A DNA stretch of 64,000 nt from Rhodospirillales bacterium. Lineage in GTDB: Bacteria; Pseudomonadota; Alphaproteobacteria; Bin95. Shown piece by piece: positions 9,245 to 58,385 of the stretch. The notes below the pieces were generated by a model that was not told the origin of the DNA, made no database searches, and saw only the letters and a program-made list of their open reading frames with translations. Numbering within the stretch: the stretch's first letter is position 1; each line of letters begins with the position of its first letter. Location: assembly GCA_038143065.1 (NCBI GenBank), contig JAYQLI010000035.1, positions 2,432,894 through 2,496,893 on the forward strand. The letters are read 5' to 3'. The position numbers were made by a program, and so were the translations under genes.

Positions 9245-9373
9245 ATGGCCCTTGCCCAATCAGCGAACTAAGCTGTTGTTTCCCGGTACTTTTTTGTTTT
9301 TAAAAAAGATAGATGGGTTCGCTTAAATTTAATAGACCTTCCCCCAACGCATTCTTTCAAGGGTGCAGCCAGC

Positions 9374-9721
9374 TCACTCCCCATCTTCCCTCTGCTTAAA
9401 AAGTGGGTTTTCTAAGGCATCGTCTAGTACTTCAACGACCCAAATATCGCGGTCAATTTTGAATTCCTTTGCAATACGTTCATCCGCTGCAACTTCTGTC
9501 TGGGAATTCTCTGGAAGAAGGTTTCGCCAGTTCCACCTTCCATCATCAGTGAGCGACTGGCCATACAAATATGCACACCCGCTTCGGCTGTAGACTTTTA
9601 TAAAAACGGATCCTGCATCAGGGTCGCCTCGGCGAAGAACAGCAGCCGGGTATCCCGATATTTCTGCTGATCTTAAGCAGGAGTCCACAACCACTCGTGA
9701 CCTTAGGCGTTCCGAAGTCAA
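9374..9721 (-). CDS. DUF1491-family protein
   Basis: AAVLRRGDPDAGSVFIKV...D(R)DIWVVEV. Start probably TTG 9721, preceded by GGAAGGAA. Confidence 0.75.
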   Translation of the reverse strand: MTSERLRSRVVVDSCLRSAEISGYPAAVLRRGDPDAGSVFIKVYSRSGCAYLYGQSLTDDGRWNWRNLLPENSQTEVAADERIAKEFKIDRDIWVVEVLDDALENPLFKQREDGE

Positions 9722-9755
9722 AGTGCTTTCCTTCCGCTCCAAAGAAGCTGCGACC

Positions 9756-9792
9756 ATGTAGCAGATTCACAGGCGAACCCATTCTGCTACAT
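9756..9792. repeat. 10-bp inverted repeat with 17-nt spacer in a divergent intergenic region
   Basis: ATGTAGCAGA (9756-9765) / TCTGCTACAT (9783-9792), followed on + by TGGTTTTT. Confidence 0.7.
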
Positions 9793-10017
9793 TGGTTTTT
9801 ATGCGTAACCCCTAGTTTTGCTGGGTGCCGTATGTGAGGGGAAGATCATAGCACGTGTTCTTGTCCTTCAATAGAGAGTGTTGCAGCAGTTGGAAATTTG
9901 GGTCCAAGTTAGATTGTTCGAATGGCCCTAGATTCTGTTTGTTGGAGCGTAAACAGCGATGAAGTCGTTTAGAAGTCTCGATGTAGGCTAATTTTAATCC
10001 GGGGTAACTCGAAAGCT

Positions 10018-36523: not shown

Positions 36524-38324
36524 TCAGTCGCTGCTGCTTTTCTTGGCTGCTTCTGCCTTCGCATGGGCGCGTCGGCCTATTGGAACGCCCTGACGCTTCA
36601 TAATGAGTGCTTGCTGTGCGATGGAGAGCAGGTTGTTCCACGTCCAGTAGATTACTAGCCCAGCTGCAAAGCTGGCGAGCAGGAATGTGAAAATAATAGG
36701 CATAAATGCGAAAATTTTTGCCTGAACCGGATCGGTGGGCTGTGGATTGAGACGTTGCTGGAAGAACATAGTCAAACCCATAGCAAGCGCCCACGCACCA
36801 ATATTAAAGCCCCCTGGGATAAACACTGACGGATCATAGGGCAGAAGGCCAAATAGATTAAATACACTTGTTGGGTCTGGAGCCGATAGATCTTGGATCC
36901 AGCCAAAGAAAGGAGCATGCCTCATTTCAATTGTAACAATAAGCACCTTATAAAGGGCAAAGAATACTGGGATTTGAATCAGAATTGGTAGGCAGCCAGA
37001 AGCCGGATTGACCTTCTTTTCCTTGTACAAAGCCATCATTTCCTGATTGAGTTTTGTACGGTCTTCACCGAAGCGCTCACGCAGTTTGACCATCTCTGGT
37101 TGCAGCGCTTTCATCTGGCTCATCGATTTGTATGACTTATTCGCCAAGGGGAAGAATGCTAATTTAATCAACACGGTTAGGGCCATGATAGCTAGGCCAA
37201 AATTGCCTAGAATGCTGTATAGCCAATCAATGGCATAGAAGAATGGTTTGGTAAGGAAATAAAACCAGCCAAAATCGATCGCGAGATCAAAATTCTGAAC
37301 ACCAAGTTTAGCTTCGATATTATCAAGAAGACGCACCTCTTTTGCGCCTCCAAAAAAGCGGTGGGTAAAGGCGGCAGATCCACCTGGAGCCACACTCACA
37401 GCAGACTCGGCTACGTAATCAGTCTGGAAACGGTCCAGCCCGCCCTGACTATGGTGCATAAACCTCGCATTAATTGGAGTATTCTGATCTGGGATCACAG
37501 CTGCTAGCCAATAAACGTCTGTAATTCCAATCCATCCGCCGGTCGACTTTTCTTCAACCATGCCCTTGGCGCCATCATCCATTAGGTCGCTGTAGTCGAC
37601 TTCTTTTAAAGATCCATCTAGGACGCCCAAAGACCTTCATGAAGAACAAATAATTGAGTTACTTTCGGTTTTCCTGTTCGCGAAACAAGTGCATAAGGAG
37701 TCAGCGAGACGGGAGAGTTTCCTTGGTTCTGAACTGAATCCTCGATGGTGAACATATAGCCATCATCGAGACTGATTTTACGCTCAAAATTTAGTCCTGT
37801 GGTTCCTTTCCAGGTCAAAGTAACCGGATTTCCAGGTCGTAGCGGTCCGCCGCTTGCTTGCCACAAGCTTTCTGCTGAGGGGGTAACGCCTCCTCCACCG
37901 CCTATCCAACCAAATTCAGCGAAATACGATTTTGGGCTTCCGCTTGGGCTCAGCAGGGTGACTGGGGGCTGTTGTTATCTAGCGTTTCTTTATAGGTGGA
38001 CAGGGTAAGATCATCGATGCGGGCACCTTTTAAAGAGATTGATCCGTGTAGGCGGTTGCTATCTATCTCGAGCCTTGGGGTAGATTGTACTGCTTGTTCG
38101 CGGGATACGGAATTAATTAAGTCCTGACTGATTACTGCAGGCGCTTGACCACTGGGAGTACTTGCAGAGGGCAATGCCACATCTGATGGAGATTTAGCAG
38201 GAGTATCTGATGCAGATGTTTCTGTTGTCTGCACAGTTGGCGTTTTTGGTGGTGGAAAAAGTACGTTCCAGCCAAGCAAAATACCGATAGACAACGCCAT
38301 CGCTAACAACAGGTTGCGGTCCAT
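36524..38324 (-). CDS. yidC: Membrane protein insertase YidC, two frameshifts
   Basis: MDRNLLLAMALS, GSISLKGARIDDL, IDFGWFYFLTKP, GNFGLAI, NPASGCLP, YWTWNN across three ORF pieces. Confidence 0.95.
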
Positions 38325-41006: not shown

Positions 41007-41899
41007 TTATCTCGTTTTAGGTATTTGTACGCCAGCCATCTTTTCAAGGGTTGTTGTTAAGGCGGTCAAATCTTGGTCGCGCCCAACTTCTGCCATGCAC
41101 TGCAGGAATAGCGTGCGGATATTTGTGCCTAGCCACATAGGAGTTTCGTAGGCCTCTGCCTCTCTACGCCAAAGCTCAAGGTCTTTTTCAATGATATATA
41201 AGGCGCCACCGTAGTCGAAGGTTCTTGAAAGAACGTGATTTGGAATTTTGGTGTCGGTTGCACTATTTCGGCCTGATGACGCATTAATGACTTCCAACAT
41301 TTGCTCAGGATCTAAGCCCGCCTTTGCCCCTAAAGTCATTGCTTCCAGAGCCACTGATAGGTTTCCGAATGAAATAATATTATTAACCAATTTCATGGTC
41401 TGAGCGGCGCCGGGGTTTTCGTTTAGATAAACCAGTTTTCCCGACAGGACTTCTAAGCTGGATTTTAGAGCCTCAAAGTTTCTTTGTCACCAGAGCACAT
41501 AATGCCGAGTGTCCCTGCTTCTGCACCTGGGGGTCCCCCAGAAATAGGTGCATCGAGGAAAACTTTTCCAGCCGCCTTCATTTTTTCAGCAACTGCGCGC
41601 GAATAGGCGCTACCAGTTGTTCCCATGTTTATGAATGCTTTGGCGCGATTGCCTTTATCAGCACCGTCAACGCCCAGAGCCACACCCTCTGCTGCAGCAA
41701 GGGATGGAAGACAAGCCAGTACGTAGTCTGATTTGTCGGCTGTTTCCCTCGGTGAAGCGGCAACCTCGGCCCCACGTTGTGCTAATACTGCAGTTCTGTT
41801 TTCATCCGTATCGCAAACAACCAAATCATGGCCAGCTTCTATAAGATTGATGGCCATGGGGCGCCCCATTGCTCCAAGGCCAATATATCCAATGCGCAT
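41007..41899 (-). CDS. 3-hydroxyisobutyrate/tartronate-semialdehyde dehydrogenase family oxidoreductase, frameshifted
   Basis: IGLGAMG, DAPISGG, catalytic MKLVNN, KDL. Confidence 0.88.
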
Positions 41900-41912
41900 A
41901 GGTCAGGCTCCT

Positions 41913-43132
41913 TTAGATAATTTTCTGATCGACAAAATTTTGAATTGCCTCTGCAGAATACCCAAGCTCTTCAAGAATGGCTTGGTTGTGTTCGCCCAAC
42001 TTAGGAGCTCGACCGAACGCAGGAGGTGTTTCTGAAAATTGCCATGGTGTACCGTGTACTTTTAGGGTTTCACCAATTTCTGGGTATTCCATTTCGGCAA
42101 TATAGCCATTGGCAATATTGTCTTCGTTGTTTGAAGCTTCCAGCAAGGTATTTACCGGTGCTGCGACGATATCTGCATTACGCAATGTTATTAGCATGTC
42201 GTCACGTCGGCCTTTCGAAAATAGGCCCCGTAAGGTTTCTAAAATCAGATCTTTCTTGTTTTCACCTACGAGGGCCAGTCCAAGATCACTTGCACCTCTT
42301 TGTTCAAGTGTGTCCCAGAAGCCAAGCGCATTCATGGCGGGCTGCCAGTCTTTTGCGTCTAGTTGCAAAACTAACGGCAGTCCATCGATATCATCAAATG
42401 TAGCCGCTATGCCTGGACGATTACGCGTGCCGTTAATTCTTGCGCCAGTTATAGGATTTTTGTTGCGCCACATAGTTGTGGTCAGTGTCCATCCCATCAA
42501 TCGGACAGCACTTCCTGCAAGTGATGTCTCCACTTTCTGACCAATGCCGGTTTCACGAGCATTGATGAGTGCAGCAAGTACACCCCAAAAGTGAGCATTG
42601 CGCAGGTTTCATCAGCTACTGACACAACGCCAGTCCGCATGGAACCACCTGGTTGGGAGTATGCTTCGGCAATCCCAGATAGGGCTTGTCCCACGGCGTC
42701 TGTCCCAGGAAGATTGGCGTGAGGACCGCGTGTGCCGTAAGCAGATACTGATGCATAAACAAGCTTAGGGTTAATCTTTTTTAAATCTTCATATCCAAAA
42801 CCGTTCCGTTCCGCTGCTCCAGGACGGAAATTCTGGCCGAAAATATCTGCTGTTTTGATAAGTCTATGAAGAATTTCCTGAGCCTCTGGTGTCTTCAGAT
42901 TTAGAGTTAGACTTTTCACGCCTCTATTATTGGTTTCAAAGAAAGATGAAATTTCACCATTCTCTCCTTTGATTTCACCGGCCTTTCTAGAGGGGTCCCC
43001 TCCATTGGGACTCTCAATTTTAATTACTTCCGCACCAAGGTCTGCCATCAGCATGTATGGGACTGTACCAGCCTGAGCAGTTGAGCAGGCAACTACACGG
43101 ATACCGTTTAAAGGGCCAAGTGATCCCGACAT
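41913..43132 (-). CDS. Family III CoA-transferase (CaiB/BaiF), frameshifted
   Basis: GPLNGIRV, ADLGAEVIKIE, NRGVKSLTLNLK, NFRPG, APKLGEH. Confidence 0.88.
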
Positions 43133-43223
43133 TCCAGGACAATCCTTTCAATGCATAGAAGGGCTAGTTTTATTCAATAATGCAAAAAATAAGCGTCTTG
43201 TTTAGTGTAGAGCTTAAGCTCGA

Positions 43224-43633
43224 TTAATGTCCGTCTGGTAATTCTGCCAATTCAATTAAGATATTTCCTGTTGCTTTTGGGTCTATAAAGGCGATGCGGC
43301 TTCCTCCATGTCCCGATCTTGGTTCTTTATCCAGCAACGCCACACCTTTTTCTTTTAATTCAGCAAGTGCGCCATCGATATCCTCTACTTCAAAGCAAAG
43401 ATGAAAAAGGCTTTGCCCTTTTCGTTGATCCAATCTTGCACTTTTGAGGAAGGGCCAACCGCTTCTAGAAGCTCGATGGATGTCTCGCCAACTGGATACA
43501 TTGCTAGCCGTGTTTCACCAATTTGCTCATCATAATCTTTTTTGAGACCAAAGATGTGTTCTAAGGCTTGCCCCTCTTTTTCCATATCATTGACTGCTAT
43601 CGCAATGTGTTCAACACGCTTTATCTTCACCAT
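43224..43633 (-). CDS. VOC-superfamily protein, methylmalonyl-CoA epimerase-like, frameshifted
   Basis: EHIAIAV, IELLE, LFHLCFEVEDI, IAFIDPKATGNILIEL. Confidence 0.8.
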
Positions 43634-43793
43634 ACCCTCCCTCTATTTGTAATGCTGAAGGAAAGCATGGAGTTGGTCGAGTAGCCATATCGTAGCTGAA
43701 ATAAAAAATATTTCTGTAACCTACATATTTTGCAAATCATCAAAATGTTTGCGTGGCGATCCATTTATTGAAGCAGTCTGTAACTTTAGCTTT

Positions 43794-44179
43794 TTAAATT
43801 TTAGTCTCCGGTCGCCACATCAAAACACTGGCAAATTTACCAAACTTTAGAGCCCCAAAAATTAGAGACAGATAAAGAATTAATTGTGAACTTTCTCCAC
43901 CTATTGAGATGCAAACTGCAACAAGACCGCCAATTAGTGTGAGAGCAATAGCCAGGGTGCGTGGGCTTTCCTTAGTTGCCTCAAGTGGATAAGCCCAGTT
44001 TCGCCATCCCTCTACAAGTGCAACAGCAACTAATACAATAGCAGTTCGCAAATCGAACTCAAAAGCTTCCTTCGCGGCTCCAATCAAGCTCTTATCTAAA
44101 CTGACTACGATGAACCCGACGATAGGCGGAAGAAGAGACCATTTCAGAGGGCTCTAACGTCTGGACCGTGACGCTTCAT
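43794..44179 (-). CDS. Small hypothetical membrane protein, probable N-terminal frameshift
   Basis: Hydrophobic 3-4 TM ORF 43794..44087; an ATG at 44179 overlaps the MaoC stop (TGATG) but is out of frame by one indel. Confidence 0.5.
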
Positions 44180-45309
44180 CAAGTATTTCGGCTTGGCAAT
44201 TCCACCAAACCCGTTCCAATCACTGAGAGCTCATTATCTTGTTGGCGAGCTTCTTGTGAAATTTCAATGAGATGACGTCCTTTCTCAATACGTTTGTCTT
44301 TTACAGTCCCACGTATGACCAGGAGGTCTCCCTCGGGGTTGTGACGGCGAATTTTGCAGGACGCTTTTCGTAAAAACCCATGGTCTCCCATCCAATCAGT
44401 AAGGTGATGAGTTAACCATGAGCAGCGCTCTGGTCCGTAGTCATAAGCCCCGGGTGTTCCGACTTGTCGAGCGAATTCCTCTTCCCAATGTACACGTTCA
44501 GGGCAATCTGGAATGTTGAATTTATTTACGATTCCAAGACCAGGATGGGCATCTATTTGTTTCCATGCAATGCGATTGGCGCGAATGTAAAGGCCGCCCC
44601 ATCCCTGAGCGTACGCAATAAAACCAGTAACGGTCATAGGGCCTTTGGGCATTGTAGGTAATTCATCACCAACATTTACATCTTCCCAATATCTGGGCTC
44701 TGACCCACGAGGCTTTTCTGCTGCATAAAGATTGTAGAATTCTTCCAGCTCCTCCTTGGTGTACTGACGAACGCCTTTTTCGCGAACTTCGGTGTATTTA
44801 ACCCCGCGTTCTCTGGCTGCGTCTCGTTCTGTCCTAAAACACCAACTGTCAGCTTCAGCCAGTAGCTCATTTCGCTGATTATAGAAATCGACATGATAGA
44901 TTTGTTGGATAGCACGACCGGCAAACTTGGTATCGTGTGAAATAAGATCCTTGAGATGGGCTTCTGTTCTAATCTCATCATTTCTGCGTATTGGAGCGTG
45001 CCATGACCAGTCAGCTCCCGCCCACATAGCATGAACACCAGGGAGCCCGCCTACGTACCCCGATATAATTCTGCTTGTTGAGAATAGGAAACTGGGAAGC
45101 GCTGTTATTCCGCCAAAACGGCTTTTTTCAGCGTATTCAGGATTGCACCAAAGTGGATTGTCATCGCCAATTCCGTGAGCGTAGTGACGGATATTGTCTC
45201 GGGTTGCCTCATGGCACCATGGCTCTAAGGAGCCAACAATGGGCACGCCAATTCGCCGCTTAAGATCGTTTAAGCCATCATCGGTGATAACAGGGAAAAG
45301 ATCACTCAT
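44179..45309 (-). CDS. Tandem hotdog-fold (MaoC/FAS1-like) dehydratase
   Basis: IRHYAHGIGDDNPLW in domain 1; YWEDVNVGDELP and ERVHWE in domain 2. Confidence 0.82.
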   Translation of the reverse strand: MSDLFPVITDDGLNDLKRRIGVPIVGSLEPWCHEATRDNIRHYAHGIGDDNPLWCNPEYAEKSRFGGITALPSFLFSTSRIISGYVGGLPGVHAMWAGADWSWHAPIRRNDEIRTEAHLKDLISHDTKFAGRAIQQIYHVDFYNQRNELLAEADSWCFRTERDAARERGVKYTEVREKGVRQYTKEELEEFYNLYAAEKPRGSEPRYWEDVNVGDELPTMPKGPMTVTGFIAYAQGWGGLYIRANRIAWKQIDAHPGLGIVNKFNIPDCPERVHWEEEFARQVGTPGAYDYGPERCSWLTHHLTDWMGDHGFLRKASCKIRRHNPEGDLLVIRGTVKDKRIEKGRHLIEISQEARQQDNELSVIGTGLVELPSRNT

Positions 45310-45312
45310 GTG

Positions 45313-46881
45313 TTATTTCTCTTCTGATTTCGAACGTTCTCGGTCTCTGAGAACCTTACGATTGACCTTGCCGGCCGGGGTTTTGGTAGCTCTTCAACAA
45401 ATTCAATGAGCCTCGGATATTCGTGCTGAGAGAGGCGCTCTCTGACCATATTTTGCACCTCATCCACAAGATCTAAGTTATTGCGTTTGGCAACCAGGAA
45501 AGCCTTTACTACATGCCCTCGTGTGGGATCGGGTACCCCAATACAAGCGGCTTCCAATACATCATCATGTCGAAGGATGGCATCTTCGATTTCAACAGCA
45601 CTCATAGTCCAGCCTGCTGAGATGATTACGTCGTCTGCTCGACCGCCATGGAAAAAATAACCATCATTATCCTTGCGACCAAGATCTTTAGTGGGAAACC
45701 ATTGGCCTCGCCTCTCCACAACTATCTCCCCAGTTTCGTTGGGGTTAGCTTCTGATCCATCTGGGCGATGAATACGGACATCCACACCTGGTGGTGGTTT
45801 GCCAAGAGAGCCAGGTTTCATCTCAAAATCAATTGCGCCAGGGTAGGAGACCAGTATCACTCCAACTTCCGTGGTGCCATACATGCTTCGAGGGCGTTGA
45901 TTAAGAGCAATCTCACAGAAATTTGCAGTCTCGCTATCGATAGGCTCGCCGGTGAAGGTGAGTTTTTCTAGCTTAAGGTTTTGAAGCTCCAGTTCCTCCG
46001 TATTCATCATTAGCCTGTAATGAGTTGCAGCGGCTGAGAGGTTTGTTGTGCCAAAGTCTTGCATGGCCTGAACAAGACGTTTCGGATCGAAACGGCCGGC
46101 GTAGGACATTGTCTCTACACCAAGAGCCAATGGCGCGAGAGTGCCATGCCATAATCCATGTCCCCAAGCGATGGACGAAGGGCAGCAAAAACGGTCACCA
46201 GGCCGAATGCCAGTGCCATATAATGCAGCAGACATTAAGGTTACTAAACTTCGATGCGTATGGCGGATTGCATCGGGTAGCTCACGAGTTGTGCCAGACG
46301 TATACTGAAAACAGGCAAGGTCATCTCCCTTAGTTTCCCATGAGAATTGACTTTGTTGAGCAGCCATTTGCTTTTCAAATTCAGGCCCGGTTACCCATAA
46401 CTTGAGATTTGAAAAGCCTTTCGCTATTGGCATTTTTTCAGAATTAGTGAGCAGAGCGGCTGGTTTGCAATCCTCAATCCGAAGCTTGAGGCCATCTTCC
46501 CCAAACAATGTGAATAGAGGGACTGCAATGCAGCCAGCTTTCATGCAACCAAAGAGGGCGACATAATAGGCTTCCTCTGGCTCTAACATGATAGCTACAC
46601 GCTCGCCCCGCCCGAATCCCTTCTGCTTTCAGAAGGTTTGCAAACTGATTAGAGCGCTCAGCCAATTGCTGAAATGTAAGGGTGTCATTGCGCCCATCAG
46701 CATGAACTATGCGAACGGCCACTCTTTCTGATGAAGTTGCATGTCTATCAACGCATTCATGAGCAATGTTGAAACAGTCTCTATTCCCGTCATACAGCTC
46801 CCATAGTCCTTCCGGTTTGAAATGCAGATGAGCATCGCTGTAGGTTGTGAAGTCCGTTAGCCTTACCAAGGACTGATCCAT
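45313..46881 (-). CDS. Acyl/aryl-CoA synthetase (AMP-forming), frameshifted
   Basis: FNIAHECVDRHA, QYTSGTT, MYGTTE, GRADDVIISAG; shifted C-terminus PKTPAGKVNR. Confidence 0.88.
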
Positions 46882-46925
46882 TCTGCCTGTTGTCGTGAGA
46901 TTAGTTTCTATCTTTGGGTTGTTTG

Positions 46926-47398
46926 TTAGACAGGGATTCAAGGAGTACGTCTATCCTGCGGCTTTCCAGAACAACTATGCGTTCCTTGAATTTTAGCTCG
47001 GTGCCATCTTCTACCAAGCGATCAAGATATTTCCCCGCAAGGAAGAGGCTCATTTCTCCGTCTTGCATTGTTCGGATTACCTGAAAATTAGTTCGTCCTT
47101 TGATTTCGCCATTCTCTTCAGTGTAACGGGCTCGCGACAGGATGTGACAGTAGGTATGGGGCTCGAAGATATTAGCAGTACGAAGAGCTAATACTCGATC
47201 TCTCATCATGCCTGCGGTGTTGCAATAAAATATACCCATAGGTAAGCCAGCTTCGTGGTTTTCACGGGTTACAATTTTATAAATTGCATCCTCGGTGAAA
47301 TAGCCAGGCCACGCCTCGAGGTCGCCGTCATCAAGTGTATGAGTGTAGTCAGCCTGGAAGTCATCCAACCGCTCACGAAGATCGTCATCTATCACCAT
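46926..47398 (-). CDS. Aromatic ring-hydroxylating oxygenase beta subunit (TphA3/AndAd/NagH-like)
   Basis: LDDGDLEAWPGYF, RENHEAGLP, MMRDRVLALRTANIFEPH, GKYLD; C-terminal indel. Confidence 0.88.
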
Positions 47399-48655
47399 TA
47401 GAAGCCCATAATTCTGCGGTAACCTGTCCAGAAACCTCGTATGGCGGCCTCAGTCGCGCGAGAATTTTCGGAGCTTTCCGCATCTCGGCCACCATTTCCA
47501 TAAAGGCGCGTTTATCTTCCGAACCTCGAGCGCCGCGCTGAACAAAATTGTTAATGCAACCGTCCTCCATTGAAACAAGGCCAGAAGACCCAGTCAGGTT
47601 CACTTGCATAACACGTTTTTCAGTCTCTTCAGGAGTGTCATCTTCATAGCCAAGGTAGATCCAGAAAAGCTCTGTTTTATCTTGGCCGCGTGGCAAATAA
47701 TGCCGCACGCATAGTGAATTCAAGGTAAAGTGTATGCAGAGGTTTGGAAAAAACGCTTGAATAGAATGAGTGATGCCATCATCAAACTCATCCCAAGTAT
47801 CTAAGAGCTGAGGGCCCTCTAACTTATTTTCATATTGAGCAGAGTGGACTCCAGCGTTTTTATATTCTTCGTCTTCGTTGAAGGTTTTGCGTTTTGCATA
47901 AGAAATGTGATGCCACTTGTCTGGAGCAATGATAATGCCGCCATCCATATCAAGGCGGTTTACCTTAAAGGTTGTGTAAAATGTGTGGAGCAGCGTTGCA
48001 TGATAGGCATCGCGAAGATTCTCGGCGTACAACATCCAATTATTGTGGATGATTTGGCTCTGTACACCGAGAGGTTTAAGCTTCCGTCCAAGGTTTCGGC
48101 GGACAAAGTCCGCCATTGTTTTTCCAAGAAAATCCTCGACTGGTGGAGTTTCGTCGGAAAAAGTTCGAAAACCATTCCGCAGAAAACTTCCACCCTTACA
48201 GGTTGCAACCGATGCTGGTTCATGTCGAAGTCATCAGGCATGCCGCCCTTGCCACCGACGCCGTTTTTGAAGGCAAGGCCAATAAGTTTGCCGTCTAATC
48301 CATAATTCCAGGAATGATATACGCAGGTTAGTGCTTTGGCGTTACCACGTTCTTTTAAGCAAACCAGAGCGCCTTTGTGAGCGCATCTATTGACCATAGC
48401 ATTTACGGTGCCCGTGCGATCGCGGGTAACAATCACAGGAGTTTCACCGACAAAAGTTGTCTTGAAGTCCCCCGGCTCAGCTACATCGAATTCCATGCAA
48501 AGGAAATTCCAGACGGGCCCTTTGAAAATTTTCTCTTGTTCTAGTTTGTAGATTTCAGGATCGAAAAATAATCGGTAAGGAATCCGCGAGATGCCTTCCT
48601 TTGGCCAAATGAAGGGTTCGGACAACTCTTCTTGGTTTTGCTTGTTTGCTAACAT
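47398..48655 (-). CDS. Rieske ring-hydroxylating oxygenase alpha subunit (terephthalate/anthranilate/salicylate-5-hydroxylase class), two frameshifts
   Basis: Rieske NRCAHKG...CVYHSW; mononuclear Fe site ENLRDAYHATLLH and SMEDG; shifted C-terminus SRATEAAIRGFWTGYR; TAATG overlap with the beta subunit. Confidence 0.9.
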
Positions 48656-48657
48656 TT

Positions 48658-49580
48658 TCAATCCTCTAAACCGTCTCGAGGGCCAAGTTTAACGCCCGCC
48701 ATTTTTTCGTAAAGCGTGATAACGCTCGAACTATCCAATTTGCCCAGGCCATTTGCCTTTGCCATCTGAAAGATCTAGAGGCTAACATTAGCTAAGAACA
48801 TTGGCACCCCCAAATGCTTGGCAAAGTCTGTTTGAAGTGTTTGGTCTTTAATGGTTATGTCTATGGTGCCCCCTGGCCGAAAGTCGCCTTTGATAAATTG
48901 TGGTGCGCGCATTTCGAGTGCGGTGGATGCGCCTGTTGATACCCGCATCACTTCAAACATGGCCTGAGGGTCCAGGCCGGCCTTAGCACCCATCACGAAT
49001 GCTTCAGCAAGAGCTGCGGTTGTTGTCTGGATCATCATGTTGTTTACATGTTTCATGGCCAATCCTTGGCCAATTTCACCCATATGGAATATTCGTGATG
49101 AATAGGCTTCGATGATTGGTCGAACTTTCTCGAGGGTTTCAGCTTTTCCTCCAATAATTGCCGATAGATCGCCCTCATCAGCCCTTTTCCAGCCGCCAGA
49201 TACAGGAGCGTCTAGTATACCAACTCCTTTGTCCGCTAAAATTTTATCCCAGCTTTTTACAGCTGTGGGATCATTGTGGCTGATGAGATCACCACGTCTC
49301 CCTGACGGAGAGCTGGAAGAAATCCATTCTCACCCATGATAACTTCTTCAGACTGAGCGGTTGTCTCCACCATACAGATCAGTATTGCGGCCTTATCAGC
49401 TACTTCACGCGCGGAAAAAGCACGCCCGGCACCTTTTGAGACAATGTCATCTAATGCGGTTTTGTCTAAATCAAAAGCAATGACTGGATGACCTTTTTTT
49501 ATGATGTTTCCGGCCATTCCTCCACCCATGACGCCGACGCCAACAATGCCTATCGTTGATCCTCTATTCCCCTCAGCCAT
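48658..49580 (-). CDS. 3-hydroxyisobutyrate dehydrogenase family oxidoreductase, two frameshifts
   Basis: VGVGVMGGGMA, LDAPVSGG (middle frame), MKHVNN, KDQ. Confidence 0.85.
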
Positions 49581-49796
49581 GCTTTTGTTCCTTTCAAGTC
49601 AGTCATCTGCATTTCAAAGAGAGAATGCCGAAATGCAAGCTTTGGTACTTTACGACGGGAATACTCCTGTCTAGGCTTTGAATCTTTCACACCCAACTGA
49701 CGTGTTTGGTTGGGTGGTTCGCTACAGGTACTGAAGAGAAAAGGGCGCGTCATAGACGCTACAGCCAGCAGCATAACAACTGAGGAGGAAACGCAT

Positions 49797-50954
49797 ATGC
49801 GTAAAGCAATGATCTCAATTGCAGTTTCTGCGGTTGCTGCTGCTGGAATAGCAGCAGGTGCTGTAGCTGCAGAAGTTAAACTGCCAAAAAATCTCTCGTG
49901 GACAGCCTATGGAACAACATCGTCCGGTTATGCCCAGTCAGTAGGACTGGGGAATATGTTGAAGGCAAAGTACGGCACTGAGGTTCGTATTATTCCTGGG
50001 AAAAACGATGTATCCCGTATGCTGCCTTTAAAGGCTGGTCAGGCTGAATTGTGCGCATGTGGTATTGCCGCTTACTTCAGTGGTGAAGGCGTTTTAATGT
50101 TTGCTGATGAAAAGTGGGGGCCGCAGCCATTGCGAAACCTTTTCAATAATAACGGTAGACATGGAACCGTTAGTGCGGCCATTGCTGATGACGTTGGTGT
50201 TAAGTCCTTACAAGACCTTAAAGGTAAGCGTGTCGCGTGGGTGAAAGGTTCGCCAGCTCTTCAAACAAACATGACTTCCATTCTCGCTTATGCGGGGCTT
50301 ACTTGGGACGAAGTCGTCAAAGTAGAGGTTCCAGGCTACGGCCAGTCCATGCAAGCCATTCTTGATGGCCAAGCTGATGTGGCCATGGGAAGCTCTATAT
50401 CTTCAATTTATAACCAGATTGCAGCTAGCCCCCGAGGCTTGTTTGTTCCTAACTTCCCGCACAGCGATAAGGAAGCGTGGGCAAGAATGAACAAAGTTGC
50501 ACCTTATGTCGCCAAAACTAAGGTGGAGCTTGCCATCAACGGTGAAAACAATCCTTCTGGAAAGCTTCCTTATGAAGGAGCTGGATATGCGTATCCAATT
50601 TTCGTTAGCTTGGCTCGAGTTAGTGATGATGTAGCCTATGGTTTAACCAAAGCCGTCATGGACAACTATGAGAGCTTTAAGGATGCTGGTCCTGGTATGG
50701 ACGGTTACAAGGTTGAAAATCAGAACTTCCAATGGGCTTTTCCATATCACACTGGCGCAATTCAGTACTACAAGGAGGCAGGAGTTTGGACTGCGGAAGA
50801 CCAAGCTCATACCGACATGTTGTTGAAGCGTGAATCAATCTTGGCTAATGCCTGGAAGAAAACTAAGAGCGAAGGTTTCAGTAGTGCTAAATGGCTTGCC
50901 AACCGTTCAGCTGCTCTGAAAGCAGCTGGAATGGATGCTCCATTCAGCGAATAA
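49797..50954 (+). CDS. TAXI-family TRAP transporter substrate-binding protein
   Basis: Signal peptide MRKAMISIAVSAVAAAG after RBS GAGGAGG; WTAYGTTSSGY, DLKGKRVAW, PYHTGAIQYYKEAG. Confidence 0.88.
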   Translation: MRKAMISIAVSAVAAAGIAAGAVAAEVKLPKNLSWTAYGTTSSGYAQSVGLGNMLKAKYGTEVRIIPGKNDVSRMLPLKAGQAELCACGIAAYFSGEGVLMFADEKWGPQPLRNLFNNNGRHGTVSAAIADDVGVKSLQDLKGKRVAWVKGSPALQTNMTSILAYAGLTWDEVVKVEVPGYGQSMQAILDGQADVAMGSSISSIYNQIAASPRGLFVPNFPHSDKEAWARMNKVAPYVAKTKVELAINGENNPSGKLPYEGAGYAYPIFVSLARVSDDVAYGLTKAVMDNYESFKDAGPGMDGYKVENQNFQWAFPYHTGAIQYYKEAGVWTAEDQAHTDMLLKRESILANAWKKTKSEGFSSAKWLANRSAALKAAGMDAPFSE

Positions 50955-50991
50955 ACATAATCTTTGGCCTCAAGGTCTTAGATGCAAGTGG

Positions 50992-51026
50992 ATCGGGCGC
51001 AGTTTTCTGCGCCCGATTTGCTTTGT
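50992..51026 (+). terminator. Hairpin after the TAXI binding-protein gene (terminator or mRNA stabiliser)
   Basis: Perfect 11-bp stem ATCGGGCGCAG/CTGCGCCCGAT, TTTT loop, followed by TTGCTTTGT. Confidence 0.7.
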
Positions 51027-51241
51027 AGGTTCATCATTGGTCCAAGCACTTTTCTAAAATCTGTCAAATTGATGTTTCTAAGCTTTACGGTGCTTAAGAA
51101 CACCAATACGATTTCTCAAATAAAAAATGTAGGACGAGGAGTTTTCCGGAGCAAATCGCCTGCGAATAAAAAAGCGTCGTCAAAGACTGGTGTTAAGCCG
51201 GCACATTTATTTAAAGCGCTATACACACGGGGAAGAGTCTT

Positions 51242-53283
51242 ATGAACGCGAATAATCAACCAGATCAAGCTATTACCGCCGAAGAAGCCGTAGAGCAGTC
51301 AGAGGTTAATGTTAGCCGCCATCGTCAGCTTTCAAAGTTTTGGTGGACCTGGCTTTTAATCGCATCCATTGGTTCAGTCCTTGTATCGATTTATGTGATT
51401 TTTGGTCTCGGAAATCGATTGGGAGCCTACGTTCCTCTAGAGACCGAGTATTTTTATGTAATGCTTGGCATGTTGTTGCCGCTTGTCTTTTGCTGTTTCC
51501 ATTCAAGTCGTTGGCGCCTGGGTCGGTAGAGTCAGGGAATGTGCCTTGGTATGATATTTTGTTGGCGGCTATTACAATTGCTTTGTCCGTCTATTTTGTT
51601 CTGCACGGCGAAGAAATTTTACAAGATGGTTGGGAGTATTTGCCTCCGGATACGGCAGAGTACTGCGCCTATGCGATGTGGTTGATCGTGTTGGAAGCAA
51701 CAAGGCGAACGGGTGGTACAGCTATCTTTGTCATCTGCCTGATATTTTCTGTTTATCCCGTATTCGCAGATGTAATGCCTGGTGTTTTGCAGGGCCAGCC
51801 AACAAGTTGGACTATCACGTCGGCTTTTTACATTTATGGCACAGAAGGCGTTCTTGGTATTCCTATGCGGGCTTTTGCCAATCTTGTGGTTGGTTTCCTC
51901 GTCTTTGGCGTTGCATTGCAATATACCGGTGGAGGGGCTTTTTTCCTCAATCTAGCATTTGCATTGTTGGGTAAATTTCGAGGCGGTCCTGCAAAAGTTG
52001 CAATCTTTTCTTCAGGTCTCATGGGTTCCATGTCGGGGTCCGTTATCACAAACGTCCTAACTACGGGTGTTATGACAATTCCGGCGATGAAAAGGGTTGG
52101 TTTTCGCTCGACCTATGCCGGAGGTGTCGAAGCCTGTGCATCAACAGGTGGTGTTCTCATGCCTCCAGTGATGGGTGCAACAGCATTCGTGATGGCGACG
52201 TTCTTAGAAGTCTCTTACGCAGAAATTGTGATCGCAGCGGTATTTCCTTCTCTGCTCTATTACTTCGGCCTTTTCATGCAGATTGATGCTTATTCGGCTC
52301 GCTACGGTCTTAAGGGTTTGCCTGTGGTTGAGCTTCCAAAAATTATGGATGTGCTTAAGACCGGATGGTACTTCATATTTGTTTTGGCAATGCTGGTGGT
52401 GATGCTTCTATACATGCTGCGTGAGGCGCAGGCACCTTATTACGCCACTGTGACGCTTTTAATTATTAATCAGCTATCACGGCACCATCGTTGGAACATA
52501 GCGCGTCTTATGGATTTCTTGATGGGTGTGGGCAAACTTTTTACAGAGCTGGCAGGCCTTTTGGCAGGTGTTGGACTCATTATTGGTGCTCTGATGCTCT
52601 CTGGAAAAATTGGCAGCCTAGCGTTCGACTTGGTTCAATTGGCGGGAGAAAATATATTCTTACTGCTCATAATGGGAGCAGTAACTAGCTTTATACTTGG
52701 CATAGGTATGACAGTGACAGCTGCTTATTTGTTCCTCGCAGTCACTGTCGGTCCTGCTCTCATCCAAGGTGGCTTGGATAAAATAGCCGTGCACCTTTTC
52801 CTTCTATACTGGGGAATGATTTCATTCATCACGCCGCCAGTTGCAATAGGCGCTTTCGCGGCGGCGACTGTGGCGCAGTCCAATCCAATGAAAACTGGTC
52901 TGGAGGCCATGCGGCTTGGCAGTATTATCTATTTTGTTCCCTTTTTCTTCGTTCTCAATCCTGCCTTGATAGGTAGAGGTGAACCAATGGAAGTTTTGGT
53001 GACATTTGGTGCGGCTGTTATTGGTGTCATTTTAGTGGCGGCCGCTCTCCAGGGCTACCTTGTTGGCGTGGGTCGGTTAGGAGCTGCTGATAATCCAGTG
53101 AGTTGGATTTGTCGCTTATTATTAATGGCGGCTGGAGTACTTATGATGATGCCTGGTGGCGATCTTGTGGGTGTTGAACATGCTACCCTTAACGTGATTG
53201 CTGCTGTTCTAGCTGTGGTCTCCGTGATCTTAGCTCGTCTTTTCCGTCGTCGACAATTGGCGGGTGGCATGCAAGAGGAGTAG
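51242..53283 (+). CDS. TRAP transporter fused 4TM/12TM permease, one frameshift
   Basis: LEATRRTGG, GGPAKVAIFSSGLMGSMSGS, EACASTGGVLMPPVMGA, SFITPPVA; N-terminus in frame 51242, joined near 51490. Confidence 0.9.
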
Positions 53284-53287
53284 CTAA

Positions 53288-54142
53288 GTGGTTGGCGAAG
53301 TTTGGCGCATCGGCGACATAAAAATTAGTCGGATCGTCGAGATTGAAGCGACGGGTGGAATGACGCGTATAATTCCAGATGCTACCCGTGAGCGAGTGAT
53401 GGGTATTCGTTGGCTTTATCCAAATTTTGCTGACGAAGATGGGCGGATGCGTGGTGCTATTCACGCTCTTCTGGTTGAAACACCAGACATGAGCATCCTT
53501 GTTGATACGTGTATTGGTAACGACAAAGATAGAACTGTCCCTGCTTGGAATCATCTGCAAACAGATTTTCTTGATGATTTGAAAACTGCTGGGAAGGCCC
53601 GTGAGGAGATTGATCGGGTTCTTTGCACGCACTTGCACACGGATCATGTTGGTTGGAATACGATGTGGACGGGGTCGGAATGGGTCCCAACATTTCCAAA
53701 CGCACGATATCTCTACGGCGCAAAAGAATTTAGGTTCTGGCAAGAATCTGCTGAGGATGGTCAGGCTCAGGTTATGCAGGATAGCGTGTTACCCGTTTGG
53801 AATGCCGGTTTAGTCGATCTTGTGGAACAAGACGAAAAAATCTGTCCAGAGATAACTCTGATCCCGTCTCCTGGCCATACTCCAGGGCACGTGAGTGTAT
53901 TAATTGAAAGTGAGGGGCAAAGCGCTCTTATCACAGGAGATTTTCTGCATCATCCTGTGCAGATGGCTCATCCAGAATGGTCTAGTTCACCGGATGTAGA
54001 TCGCCCTCAGGCCATTCAAACTAGGAAGATCATGTATAACCGCTTTGCAGATGGCCCGACCCTCATAATAGGGACCCATTTTGCTACCCCTACAGCGGGT
54101 TACATCAAGAAAGATGGTGATGCCTGGCGATTAGAGGTTTAA
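53288..54142 (+). CDS. Metallo-beta-lactamase-fold hydrolase
   Basis: LVDTCIG, THLHTDHVGWN, PGHTPGH, GDFLH, GTHF. Confidence 0.9.
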   Translation: MVGEVWRIGDIKISRIVEIEATGGMTRIIPDATRERVMGIRWLYPNFADEDGRMRGAIHALLVETPDMSILVDTCIGNDKDRTVPAWNHLQTDFLDDLKTAGKAREEIDRVLCTHLHTDHVGWNTMWTGSEWVPTFPNARYLYGAKEFRFWQESAEDGQAQVMQDSVLPVWNAGLVDLVEQDEKICPEITLIPSPGHTPGHVSVLIESEGQSALITGDFLHHPVQMAHPEWSSSPDVDRPQAIQTRKIMYNRFADGPTLIIGTHFATPTAGYIKKDGDAWRLEV

Positions 54143-56524: not shown

Positions 56525-57379
56525 TTAGGACTCCGTATCCTGGCCTAACCCCAGCATACGGCAAATGGCAGTGGTGAGTTCGGCACGGTTAAGAGTGTAA
56601 AAATGGAATGCATGCACTCCCTCTCGTTCTAACTCTTTGCATTGTTCCACAGCCATCGCAGCTGCGATTCCTGAGCGTGTTTCTACGTCTTCATCTAAGC
56701 CTTCAAAACGCTGAGAAACCCATTTTGGAACTGTTGCGCCGCAGCGGCTAGCGAAAGCCACCATAGATTTGAAGTTAGTTACTGGAAGAATTCCTGGAAT
56801 AATTGGCATCTCTAACTTAGCAGCAGCCATTTTGTCACGATAATGAAGAAAATCCTTGGTCTCGAAAAAGAACTGAGTGATCGCCCGTGTGGCGCCTGCA
56901 TCAAATTTCCGTTTTAGGTTGTCAATTTCAGTCGCTAGGTCGCGAGCTTCAGGATGAGTTTCGGGGTAGGCCGCTACTGAAATTTCAAAGTCATGAAGTT
57001 TTTTCAGTCCAGTGACCAAATCTGATGCGTAGGCGTAGCCGTTAGCCGTTGGTTGATACGCTTGTCCAGGTTCGGGCATATCACCTCTGAGTGCTACGAT
57101 ATGCCGGACGCCCATGGCCCAGTAATCATTTGCTATCTCGTCAACTTCCAAGCTAGTTGCGGACACGCAGGTTAAATGAGCTGCGGCGGTAAGAGACGTC
57201 TCCTGAGTGATTTTGCGCACCGTTTCATGCGTGCGCTCGCGAGTGGTTCCTCCAGCGCCATAAGTTACTGAAACAAACGAGGGTTTAAATGGAGTTAATC
57301 TCTGGACTGATTGCCAAAGCGTTGAGGCCATTCGTTCAGTTTTTGGGGGGAAGAATTCAAAGCTAACAGTTGGTAACAT
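56525..57379 (-). CDS. metF: 5,10-methylenetetrahydrofolate reductase
   Basis: SFEFFPPK, SVTYGAGG, AHLTC, ALRGD, AITQFFF, FHFYTLNR. Confidence 0.96.
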   Translation of the reverse strand: MLPTVSFEFFPPKTERMASTLWQSVQRLTPFKPSFVSVTYGAGGTTRERTHETVRKITQETSLTAAAHLTCVSATSLEVDEIANDYWAMGVRHIVALRGDMPEPGQAYQPTANGYAYASDLVTGLKKLHDFEISVAAYPETHPEARDLATEIDNLKRKFDAGATRAITQFFFETKDFLHYRDKMAAAKLEMPIIPGILPVTNFKSMVAFASRCGATVPKWVSQRFEGLDEDVETRSGIAAAMAVEQCKELEREGVHAFHFYTLNRAELTTAICRMLGLGQDTES

Positions 57380-57387
57380 TTCTTATC

Positions 57388-58338
57388 CTAAGACATCTGA
57401 ATGCCAGATAGGTCTGGTTTTCGAACAAGCCAGATACAGACGGTTAATGGTTCGCCGGGTAAACTTTCTTCGCCAAAAATTTCCAAGCCAGCATCATCAG
57501 TCCATCGTGTAACTTCAGAGGATGCAAAACCCAGGCGTCTATGGGCGTGGTTATGTCTTAAATGGTCGAGAGTATGTGGAGCAAAGTCTACTAGAATTGC
57601 TTCCCCTCCAGGTTTTAGTAGGCGTGCTACTTCCCCAATTGCTTTTGCCGGATTGTCTAAGAAGTGAAGAACTTGATGAGCCGTTATTAGATCGAAGTTT
57701 TCATCATCAAAAGGGGCTGAGTAGAGATCCCCATGTCTTACACTGCAATGTGTTAATCCTGCCGCAGCAATTCTATCGCGTGCTAGGGATAGCATGTCTC
57801 GACTAATATCTAGACCAGCAGCGCGAGAAGCATAAGGGGCAAAGAGTTCTAATATTCGTCCTGCTCCAACGCCAATATCAAGATAATCATCGACAGGCGT
57901 TTTGGGTGCAAGCCGCAGGAGACGTGCCTCCAGTTCTGCCTCGTCAACATGCAGAGAGCGAATGGCATCCCACATTTTGGCGTTTGCTTTAAAGTAGGCT
58001 TCAGCCTCCGTTGCTCTTTGGGAACGGATGTCGGCTAAACGTTCCGCATCACGCCTAAGCACATGTTCATCAGAGTTGGTTGAATTTATTAGCCACTTTG
58101 CCAAGCGCCCTGCTTCACCAGAGTCTGCCAGCCTGTGGAATACCCATGCGCCCTCTCTAAATCGAAATAGGAGACCAGACTCAGAGAGGATTTTGAGATG
58201 CCGAGACACCGCCGGCTGCGTCATGCCAAGAATTTCTGTGATTTCTGTTACGGTCAATTCGCCTTCTGCACAAAGAGCTAACATGCGTAATCGGGTAGCT
58301 TCTGCAGCGGCACGCAACATTGTGATGAGGTGGTTCAA
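57388..58338 (-). CDS. sahR: ArsR-HTH plus SAM-methyltransferase-domain regulator (SahR-like)
   Basis: TRLRML...ELTVTEI...QPAVSRHLKIL (ArsR) followed by LDIGVGAGR, HQVLHFL, VDFAPH; directly upstream of metF; start probably TTG 58338. Confidence 0.8.
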   Translation of the reverse strand: MNHLITMLRAAAEATRLRMLALCAEGELTVTEITEILGMTQPAVSRHLKILSESGLLFRFREGAWVFHRLADSGEAGRLAKWLINSTNSDEHVLRRDAERLADIRSQRATEAEAYFKANAKMWDAIRSLHVDEAELEARLLRLAPKTPVDDYLDIGVGAGRILELFAPYASRAAGLDISRDMLSLARDRIAAAGLTHCSVRHGDLYSAPFDDENFDLITAHQVLHFLDNPAKAIGEVARLLKPGGEAILVDFAPHTLDHLRHNHAHRRLGFASSEVTRWTDDAGLEIFGEESLPGEPLTVCIWLVRKPDLSGIQMS

Positions 58339-58365
58339 AAGAAACTCGCATGGGGATAAAATTAG

Positions 58366-58385
58366 ATATGCAGATATTTGCATAT
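58366..58385. promoter_or_regulatory. 20-bp palindromic operator, probable SahR site
   Basis: ATATGCA-GATATT-TGCATAT, 27 nt upstream of the inferred sahR start. Confidence 0.65.

Follow-up and report, generated by a model that had tools for sequence, protein, structure and literature searches.

Gene content of the locus

The stretch of DNA analysed here, called the window throughout, comprises 64,000 nucleotides of a Rhodospirillales bacterium genome (G000:C35:2432894-2496893; the assembly holds 4.63 Mb in 52 contigs, with a completeness of 97.6% and a contamination of 5.5%). We studied a gene cassette on its minus strand that encodes a Rieske oxygenase together with coenzyme A (CoA) enzymes. 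From 49580 down to 43794, open reading frames (ORFs) and searches of Pfam and NCBIfam gave the order HIBADH-family (beta-hydroxyacid) dehydrogenase, Rieske alpha subunit, beta subunit, acyl-CoA synthetase, MaoC-type hydratase and small membrane ORF, which is the operon that an earlier note had described from the sequence (Table 1). In this species the operon extends on the same strand down to 41007, with a VOC/epimerase-like gene, a family III CoA-transferase gene and a second HIBADH-family gene.

The beta start overlaps the alpha stop as TAATG, as the note had stated, and the alpha motifs that it quoted (WNFLCME, AFKNGVGGKGGMP, NNWMLYAEN, LLHTFYTTFKVNRL, HHISY, DEFDDGIT, YLGYEDD, VRH, HFTLNS and CINN) all lie in the frames of the window; a further one, RATE, is located beyond the second alpha frameshift. 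The gaps between the genes are tight (3–44 nt, with overlapping starts), and 3 nt separate the dehydrogenase and alpha genes in the related locus L011. A promoter and terminator scan of 40.5–50.2 kb found sites at numbers not above those of shuffled sequences (9 versus 12.9; 13 versus 9.6) and is uninformative on the operon borders. Contigs from one metatranscriptome run cover nearly the whole cassette at 90–95% likeness. Since DNA can occur in such libraries, we take this as a weak hint of transcription. Contig depth in the RNA run was higher over the HIBADH1 and alpha genes, which gives no ranking of expression.

The small hydrophobic protein at the end of the cassette, whose membrane character was judged by eye from the sequence, is 93% identical in the closely related contig L023 and was seen only in this species' version of the operon. 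It has no match in Pfam or NCBIfam.

Table 1. Features of the cassette, its extension and the divergent neighbouring genes (window coordinates; lesions are those of the window copy)
Feature	Position	Strand	Family evidence	Remarks
HIBADH-family dehydrogenase 1 (HIBADH1)	~48667..49580	-	Pfam NAD_binding_2 + NAD_binding_11	Directly upstream of alpha; 1-base deletion near 49272 and in-frame stop at 48775-48777, both repaired in reads
Rieske oxygenase alpha, sister clade of terephthalate dioxygenase	47399..48655	-	Pfam Rieske + Ring_hydroxyl_A	1-base deletions near 48165 and 47491, corrected in reads and in L002
Rieske oxygenase beta	46901..47400	-	Pfam Ring_hydroxyl_B + SnoaL_4	C-terminus shifted by indel near 46938
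AMP-forming acyl-CoA synthetase (ligase)	45306..46866	-	Pfam AMP-binding + AMP-binding_C	Intact form 522 aa (amino acids) in L023; extra base near 46606; base lost near 45380, which garbles the C-terminal motif
Double-hotdog MaoC-type (R)-hydratase/dehydratase (MaoC)	44179..45309	-	FAS1_DH_region, MaoC_dehydratas	376 aa, intact in window
Small hydrophobic protein	~43794..44182	-		129 aa in L023; start overlaps MaoC stop; base missing at 44153
VOC-fold protein, methylmalonyl-CoA-epimerase-like	43224..43633	-	Pfam Glyoxalase_4	Frameshifted in window; intact 135 aa in L023
Family III (CaiB/BaiF) CoA-transferase	41913..43132	-	CoA_transf_3 on both frameshift pieces	Intact 406 aa in L023
Second HIBADH-family dehydrogenase	41007..41899	-	NAD_binding_2 + NAD_binding_11	Frameshift-split in window; intact 297 aa in L023
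TAXI-family TRAP binding protein	49710-50954	+	NCBIfam TRAP_TAXI, 167 bits (cut-off 84)	Divergent neighbour
Fused TRAP permease	~50982-53283	+	TRAP_fused, 571 bits (cut-off 321)	N-terminus frameshifted
MBL-fold lactonase-like protein	53288-54142	+	AidB-like lactonase, 87 bits (cut-off 360)	

The broken frames are assembly errors

The window copy of the cassette holds eight single-base indels and one in-frame stop. With intact orthologues as queries, tblastn recovered two frame changes in alpha, one each in the HIBADH1 and ligase genes, and the stop in the HIBADH1 gene. Eight indels and a nonsense codon within 6 kb would be what a pseudogene array decaying in this strain looks like. We therefore compared contigs from four public runs, belonging to four studies, over 43700-49700. 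These contigs add or drop one base at 44153, 45380, 46606, 46938, 47491, 48165, 49272 and 49615, and have G in place of A at 48777. Every indel and the stop are corrected in this way, which is the polishing that the earlier note had asked for. Most of the corrected sites were found in all four runs; the correction at 48165 is absent from one (X5) and partial in another (X6).

The indels sit in short homopolymers; in alpha, comparison with a 93%-identical relative shows that a GG and a GGG run have each become one base shorter. L023, a contig of a closely related metagenome-assembled genome (MAG), is 93–100% identical in the downstream genes and keeps every gene open; other relatives, including L011, also carry open frames. 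Genes of the window that have nothing to do with the cassette are split in the same way, namely YidC (36524-38324) and the N-terminus of the TRAP permease (50982-51529), as are the CoA-transferase, second HIBADH and VOC genes (41007-43642). Because the read contigs of four studies correct the breaks and the frames of the relatives are open, the breaks are assembly errors and not pseudogenes, and the operon is intact; we consider genuine decay highly improbable. The assembly is indel-rich (about 1 per kb here), and therefore apparent pseudogenes of this genome should not be trusted. All protein work used the intact genes of L023 and L011, and fragments of the window were never joined.

The alpha subunit belongs to a sister clade of terephthalate dioxygenase

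The earlier note had recognised a likeness to Comamonas TphA2 along the alpha subunit, and structures bear this out. Alpha matches the alpha chains of the terephthalate dioxygenases (TPADOs) 7vju and 7q04 with 431 and 427 bits, respectively, over residues 13–415. It matches NagG (7c8z) with 277 bits and other oxygenases with at most 122 bits. Both subunits score below the NCBIfam cut-offs for their anthranilate-type families, alpha with 443.7 against 750 (AndAc, NF041684) and beta with 163 against 230 (AndAd, NF041685). In a plasmid collection the best alpha matches are 46–51% identical (92 records, all below 60%). Three of these lie in canonical IclR/alpha/beta/PdxA/reductase/transporter operons, in Burkholderia, in Rhodococcus and on the marine Pacificitalea plasmid pDY25-B. 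The available text of PMC7666164 ties the pDY25-B cluster to terephthalate use in a marine consortium and gives its alpha subunit (the reference in L102) as 60% identical to Comamonas TphA2.

A maximum-likelihood tree of 31 alpha subunits, with several long branches in the outgroup, gathers the three TPADO references in a clade of their own (100/99) and places the window alpha in a separate clade of 23 rows (100/99). TPADO, the window clade and, as a third lineage, a congener paralogue make up one 100/99 group, in which the branching order of the three is unsettled and which stands apart from the AndAc, OhbB-like, AhdA1-like and NagG-like rows. Alpha is thus TPADO-like yet outside every characterised clade of the tree, in a sister clade of TPADO.

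The structural work on TPADO, in the available text of PMC9060491, assigns the binding of iron to H210, H215 and D356, the salt bridge with the reactive carboxylate to R309 and the stacking on the ring to I290. N224, S243 and R390 bind the distal carboxylate and were proposed there as a terephthalate dioxygenase recognition motif (Kincannon et al. 2022). According to the same text, the characterised members of this oxygenase subfamily all act on aryl carboxylates.

We aligned alpha subunits from 80 related loci with the references. A scan with one genome per species had returned 501 stretches with a relative bearing clade-typical peptide patterns, and the 80 are the best of these. Relative to the L011 reference, 8 are at least 84% identical and 72 are 65–72% identical. 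The Rieske motif CAH...CVYH is visible in alpha, and the equivalents of the three iron ligands are kept in 80/80 loci. R309, I290, N224, S243 and R390 are all kept in the 8 loci of the window clade. In the 65–72% clade, N224, S243, R309 and R390 are kept in 72/72, and position 290 is Ile in 67 and Val in 5. The three TPADO references keep N224, S243 and both arginines, and none of N224, S243 and R390 is kept in any of four non-TPADO relatives (AndAc, OhbB-like, AhdA1-like, NagG-like). The active-site comparison proposed in the note thus finds all five contacts kept, with positions 301–303 and 360–361 changed; HFTLNS and CINN, which it had pointed out in place of the TPADO residues, are clade-wide signatures in the 80 loci. 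From these residues we would expect a planar substrate that bears a carboxylate and, opposite it, another anionic group, held in a pocket shaped unlike that for terephthalate.

The operon is a fusion of two modules within one genus

Relatives of the alpha fragment occur in 9/9 other genomes of the genus and in 22/24 of the family. Beta directly follows alpha in 78/80 loci, the contigs of the other two ending at alpha. Among the 8 loci with alpha at least 84% identical, an orthologue of HIBADH1 (75–100%) lies directly upstream in 7, and the contig of the eighth starts at alpha. The ligase (66–100%) follows beta in 6 of these 8 loci and MaoC follows the ligase in 5, with one contig ending inside the ligase. 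None of the partners HIBADH1, ligase and MaoC was found in the 72 loci of the 65–72% clade. In 7 of the 10 genus genomes, alpha and MaoC are 2–3 kb apart on one contig; two more have a MaoC on another contig, only 69–73% identical, and in one no MaoC was found (the set of loci and the set of genus genomes may overlap). One locus, L025, has HIBADH-alpha-beta by itself, flanked by genes for an SDR and a glycosyltransferase. The HIBADH gene is the tightest partner of alpha. In the loci examined, TphB or TphA1 never stands beside an alpha of the sister clade.

The ligase-MaoC pair has a history of its own. MaoC relatives of 67–75% identity are widespread in Proteobacteria, some of them named in Variovorax records, and 11 of 300 sampled other alphaproteobacterial genomes have one at an E value of 1e-80 or better. 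We examined nine such alphaproteobacterial loci (MaoC 67–74% identical). An orthologous ligase (57–61%) lies directly upstream of MaoC in eight of them, and neither alpha nor HIBADH1 was found within about 8 kb of any. A divergent gene belongs to one cluster in 5/9 loci and is an IclR by Pfam in the four scanned; nothing besides it and the ligase recurs around the nine. L121-L128 display this compact module of divergent IclR, acyl-CoA synthetase and double-hotdog MaoC at 57–74% identity in distant alphaproteobacterial families. The window operon has no IclR gene, and its ligase-MaoC pair sits behind beta instead.

Because each module occurs alone elsewhere and the linkage stops at the genus, we conclude that HIBADH-alpha-beta and ligase-MaoC were fused into this operon within the genus. 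Module INDEPENDENCE and fusion, as seen in the stand-alone ligase-MaoC loci, L025, the genus linkage and the 0/72 loci, count in favour of the reading preferred below. The linkage of oxygenase, ligase and MaoC that the note had put forward therefore stands within the genus and fails beyond it. Likewise, of the two findings that the note had named as jointly fatal to its view, alpha inside a characterised clade was not seen, and ligase and MaoC unlinked to alpha in other genomes was seen outside this one genus. A single integrated pathway of oxygenation and CoA-dependent steps keeps the adjacency in the genus on its side; against it stand the independence of the modules and a ligase of short-chain type. 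With no linkage beyond the genus and an independent ligase-MaoC pair, it is the operon fusion that argues for such integration.

Family assignment of the partner enzymes

The intact HIBADH1 orthologue in L011 has 307 aa and matches NAD_binding_2 with 146 bits and NAD_binding_11 with 110 bits. It stays below all NCBIfam equivalog cut-offs, including those for L-threonate dehydrogenase (229.5 against 350), tartronate semialdehyde reductase (216 against 397), HIBADH (199 against 291.6) and sulfolactaldehyde reductase (152 against 348). Among solved structures it is closest to 2-(hydroxymethyl)glutarate dehydrogenase (3cky, 182 bits). HIBADH1 has the SGG and K-x-x-x-N motifs, which we take to be catalytic, and an Asp after the Rossmann beta2 strand, presumably a mark of NAD preference. 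The second HIBADH-family protein is about 30% identical to HIBADH1, and in its L023 form scores 196.9 against a cut-off of 397 for tartronate semialdehyde reductase.

The ligase too scores below its cut-offs: 307.7 against 729 for acetate-CoA ligase PRK04319, 298 against 850 for MbcS and 194.9 against 375.25 for the benzoate-CoA ligase family TIGR02262. In the PDB it comes closest to acetyl-CoA synthetase 9g79 (221 bits), followed by 4-hydroxybutyrate-CoA ligase 8biq (213 bits), with benzoate-CoA ligases at 114–124 bits. By these scores it resembles short-chain acyl-CoA synthetases more closely than aryl-CoA ligases.

MaoC passes the cut-offs of FAS1_DH_region (52.9 bits, cut-off 22) and MaoC_dehydratas (27.8 bits, cut-off 27), and has no NCBIfam family match at E 1e-10. 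Sequence and profile searches of the PDB gave E values no better than 5e-5 (5i7n), and an Atlas look-up returned only generic 'FAS1-like dehydratase' clusters. An AlphaFold model from 15 sequences was poor (pLDDT 60, pTM 0.66). Its top Foldseek matches were double-hotdog hydratases (E 1e-12 to 1e-8). The mesaconyl-/itaconyl-CoA hydratases 8hgn, 8huc and 8khg also occur among the fold matches, at 10–12% identity and TM of at most 0.5. With a model of this quality, the matches support a double hotdog alone and point to no particular substrate.

In the extension, the intact VOC protein of L023 reaches 112.9 bits against methylmalonyl-CoA epimerase TIGR03081, whose cut-off is 114.95. For the CoA-transferase, the nearest solved relatives are YfdW, a formyl-CoA transferase, with 150 bits and succinate-hydroxymethylglutarate CoA-transferase with 141 bits.

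Candidate electron donors and ring-cleavage genes

The usual partners of tph operons are missing, as the note had observed. In genome-wide family searches, no Fer2 or NAD_binding_1 domain and no Rieske domain besides that of alpha fell within the window, and the genome's best TphB-like (PdxA) matches were also elsewhere. The congener cassette likewise has neither TphB nor TphA1. No TctC (TTT-family) binding protein was found among the ORFs of 36.5–58.9 kb, the rest of the window not having been scanned for TctC.

A search of the genome for electron-transfer genes, which the note had advised, yielded three outside the window. One encodes an orphan BenC-type Fer2-FAD-NAD reductase (G000:C35:1189714-1190778; L098:7715-8782) and has an aldo/keto reductase gene on one side and lpdA-sucB-sucA-sucDC on the other. 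This reductase reaches 206 bits with the NCBIfam BenC model (cut-off 430), is the best match in the genome to three TphA1-type reductases (25–26% identity, full length) and is present in 10/10 genus genomes. A second, PDR-like reductase lies elsewhere in the genome. Finally, a Rieske-type ferredoxin on contig C42 (G000:C42 80442-80714) is 38–43% identical to oxygenase ferredoxins and is a candidate alternative donor. In this region (79500-80950), the frame beside it is reductase-like only by its GxGxxG flavoprotein motif on a heavily frameshifted contig, and no oxygenase alpha was found on C42.

As for ring cleavage, PcaGH-like pairs were found in 8/9 congeners and LigB-type genes in 1/10 genomes. 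G000 itself encodes a homogentisate dioxygenase, as well as a bicupin and a two-domain VOC protein (58.8 bits, cut-off 320) that are both weak matches. The homogentisate dioxygenase matches occur with identical scores on G000:C44:2700-3155 and C46:36324-36779, and small Rieske matches are doubled likewise. The region may have been duplicated, or assembled twice over, which would agree with the contamination estimate.

Neighbouring genes and relatives of the cassette

Upstream of the cassette and divergent from it lie the TAXI-TRAP and MBL genes (Table 1) and an alpha/beta hydrolase gene. The TAXI-TRAP and MBL genes do not adjoin the cassette in the congeners L018-L022. The solved relatives of the TAXI protein are distant (at most 50 bits) and thus give no hint of its ligand. 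Further along the window (56525-58383), a methylenetetrahydrofolate reductase gene adjoins one for an ArsR-type helix-turn-helix domain fused to an S-adenosylmethionine (SAM) methyltransferase.

The 65–72% clade (L026-L097) spans Alpha-, Beta- and Gammaproteobacteria, including Bradyrhizobium, Methylocella and Hydrogenophaga, with about 500 species representatives. Among the 80 loci the recurring neighbours are LysR (24/80), TctC binding protein (24/80), rhodanese (11/80) and alpha/beta hydrolase (8/80); no dehydrogenase or reductase of tph type is among those of the 65–72% clade, whose neighbours carry a sulfur flavour. In 15/80 loci a 569-aa fusion of a Cys/Met-metabolism pyridoxal-phosphate (PLP) enzyme with a NifU domain is encoded directly upstream of alpha. 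These loci come from marine Rhodospirillaceae MAGs (L028-L076, e.g. L047:2333-4042 and L066:5945-8312). Near the fusion we found a nitrile-hydratase alpha gene with a split beta gene (6/80 loci), as well as genes for a SAM methyltransferase, an MBL protein, hydantoinase A/B, a P450 and homocysteine S-methyltransferase. This neighbourhood may be functional, or else inherited synteny.

Congeners also carry a second TPADO-like alpha/beta pair, 43–45% identical to the window fragment (L107, G003:C6:47000-66000, at 7619-10309). It keeps the contact residues for terephthalate (TPA) and is missing from G000. A two-domain rhodanese follows the pair, and the flanks hold a HIBADH-family gene, two alpha/beta hydrolase genes, a gene of the PEP-mutase/isocitrate-lyase family and a nitrile hydratase alpha gene.

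Proposed function and its alternatives

Our preferred reading, held tentatively and at somewhat less than even confidence, is that this intact operon of two modules, joined within one marine genus, pairs a dioxygenase with a HIBADH-family dehydrogenase acting on a terephthalate-like dianion. The alpha3beta3 Rieske dioxygenase would bind a planar aromatic or heteroaromatic carboxylate, with a second anionic group in para position, between its two conserved arginines, and would add O2 at C1-C2 to give a cis-1,2-dihydrodiol-1-carboxylate. HIBADH1, probably NAD-preferring, would oxidise the C2 hydroxyl. The chemistry suits an enzyme of this family, since a 1-carboxy-1,2-diol is a beta-hydroxy acid with respect to its C2 hydroxyl. 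The resulting beta-keto acid would lose CO2 and re-aromatise, so that HIBADH1 would take the place that the unrelated PdxA-type TphB has in tph operons. Electrons would come from an unlinked donor, the best candidate being the BenC-type reductase. The ligase would make the CoA ester of a small, probably unsaturated or hydroxylated (di)carboxylic acid, which MaoC would hydrate or dehydrate; in this species the epimerase-like protein, the dicarboxylate-type CoA-transferase and the second dehydrogenase may extend this CoA part. Given their fusion in an operon, the two modules presumably serve one catabolic process.

Several observations weigh against this reading. Adjacency is the sole functional tie between the modules. 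Five positions near the iron are fixed otherwise than in TPADO (Q301 to F/L/Y, I302 to T, Q303 to L, G360 to N and G361 to N/E/S), so the substrate need be neither terephthalate nor a benzene ring. The 65–72% clade has no dehydrogenase of any kind beside alpha, which would fit a product that re-aromatises unaided. The closest relatives of HIBADH1 elsewhere (49–58%, in 4 other genomes of 300) are not beside Rieske genes: their neighbours vary, with no Rieske protein among 29 ORFs scanned. We know of no HIBADH-family enzyme that acts as a dihydrodiol dehydrogenase, and neither such an enzyme nor this gene combination is described in the literature that we searched, subscription journals and supplements lying outside the search. 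The BenC-type reductase is a core gene beside those of 2-oxoglutarate dehydrogenase and has no specific tie to the cassette. Moreover, G000 lacks both PF00775 and PF02900, and its closest congener, G008, lacks PF00775, so that a protocatechuate-type product would meet no classical cleavage enzyme there.

The earlier note had read the operon as one hybrid pathway of oxygenation and CoA-dependent steps. In such a pathway the dioxygenase would dearomatise the substrate, the ligase would activate the non-aromatic diol or what its oxidation yields, and MaoC would act on the CoA thioester (here with the epimerase, the CoA-transferase and the second dehydrogenase). No classical ring-cleavage dioxygenase would be needed, a logic like that of the box and paa pathways. 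Tight spacing with overlapping starts, retention in most of the genus, the dicarboxylate-type CoA enzymes of the extended cluster and the lack of PcaGH-type enzymes in G000 and G008, and of LigB-type ones in G000, agree with it. We still regard it as unlikely: ligase-MaoC stands without an oxygenase in 8/9 other loci and HIBADH-alpha-beta stands alone in L025, the ligase scores 213–221 bits with short-chain synthetases versus 114–124 with benzoate-CoA ligases, the cassette has no thiolase, ring hydrolase or aldolase, and most congeners do have PcaGH-like pairs. Quite unlikely, in our view, is a divergent but true TPADO that turns TPA into the dihydrodiol DCD and this into protocatechuate, with HIBADH1 replacing TphB and the CoA genes as passengers. 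Its nearest characterised relative is indeed TPADO, the five published TPA contacts and the iron ligands are conserved, and the labels of the runs that hold the stretch place the host in estuarine and marine water. Yet its identity to TPADOs of three phyla or classes is only 46–51%, where the marine pDY25-B alpha is reported at 60% to Comamonas TphA2 in the available text of PMC7666164. Five pocket positions are fixed otherwise in all 80 loci, neither TphB nor TphA1 accompanies the sister clade, and G000 lacks the cleavage families for protocatechuate. The clade is also kept at 65–72% across three proteobacterial classes, which suggests an old natural substrate.

The oxygenase might instead hydroxylate or desaturate a C5–C6 diacid, the whole cluster being a pathway for a small aliphatic or alicyclic dicarboxylate in which the HIBADHs would turn hydroxy acids into semialdehydes and back, and the CoA enzymes (ligase, CoA-transferase, hydratase and epimerase) would feed central metabolism. 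Every gene other than those of the oxygenase is nearest to enzymes of small (di)carboxylic acids, judging by the HIBADH1, ligase, CoA-transferase and VOC matches; mesaconyl-/itaconyl-CoA hydratases are among the MaoC fold matches, a TAXI-TRAP transporter adjoins, and G000 has this one alpha/beta-type oxygenase only and few ring-cleavage genes. The conserved ring-stacking I290 with the whole TPA-contact set, the aryl carboxylates used by all characterised subfamily members (PMC9060491, available text) and the poor model behind the fold matches (TM of at most 0.5) make this decidedly unlikely. A long shot is a new aerobic route, in which a natural para-dianionic arene carboxylate is dearomatised and then dismantled as a CoA thioester by the ligase, MaoC, the epimerase-like protein and the CoA-transferase, with the HIBADHs as redox steps and no classical ring-cleavage dioxygenase. 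If it were true, the sister clade of TPADO, with its roughly 500 species representatives, would act on an abundant natural dianion, possibly sulfonated or sulfated given the recurring rhodanese and Cys/Met-PLP neighbours, and the published TPA recognition motif would also fit substrates other than terephthalate. We further considered sulfated or carboxylated cinnamates as substrates and dropped them, as no analysis bears on them.

Whichever reading applies, the TPA signature given in the available text of PMC9060491 is fully shared by a large sister clade with other operon partners. Metagenomic counts of 'TphA2', taken as a measure of the capacity to degrade plastic monomers, may thus include many genes without an assigned substrate; conversely, the sister clade may hold a hidden pool of terephthalate-active enzymes. 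On the preferred reading, the decarboxylating dihydrodiol step would be solved in a new and chemically sensible way, by teaming a beta-hydroxyacid dehydrogenase with a Rieske dioxygenase directed at carboxylates. The locus also offers a testable case of pathway assembly, with two self-contained catabolic modules welded into an operon within one genus.

Comparison with known systems

The closest known systems are the TPADOs (TphA2A3/TpaAaAb; 7q04-7q06, 7vju). The window oxygenase shares with them the alpha/beta Rieske organisation, the Cys/His and iron ligands, the five TPA contacts and the superclade. It differs in sequence (alpha 46–51% identical), in its separate sister clade and at positions 301–303 and 360–361. 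Unlike tph operons, the window operon has no PdxA-type TphB, TphA1, IclR-type TphR, TctC or MFS transporter and has a HIBADH partner instead.

AndAcAd and NagGH belong to the same oxygenase subfamily, keep R309 and have electron-transfer genes that can be unlinked or shared. They lack N224, S243 and R390; the window alpha and beta stay below the AndAc and AndAd cut-offs, and alpha reaches 277 bits with NagG.

In the CoA part, the stand-alone IclR/ligase/MaoC module of Alphaproteobacteria and Variovorax agrees in gene order and spacing, with ligase identities of 57–61% and MaoC identities of 67–74%. It differs in having a divergent IclR gene and neither an oxygenase nor a HIBADH, whereas the window operon has both of these and no IclR.

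In the ibuprofen (ipf) type of system, a CoA ligase and a Rieske alpha/beta oxygenase are encoded together, and the oxygenase takes the CoA ester. The two anion-clamping arginines conserved in the window alpha argue for a free dianion as substrate, unlike the CoA ester of ipf.

Taken together, these comparisons suggest that the locus would be a variant of the TPADO kind: fold, metal sites and carboxylate clamps are alike, but clade placement and operon partners set it outside TPADO proper.

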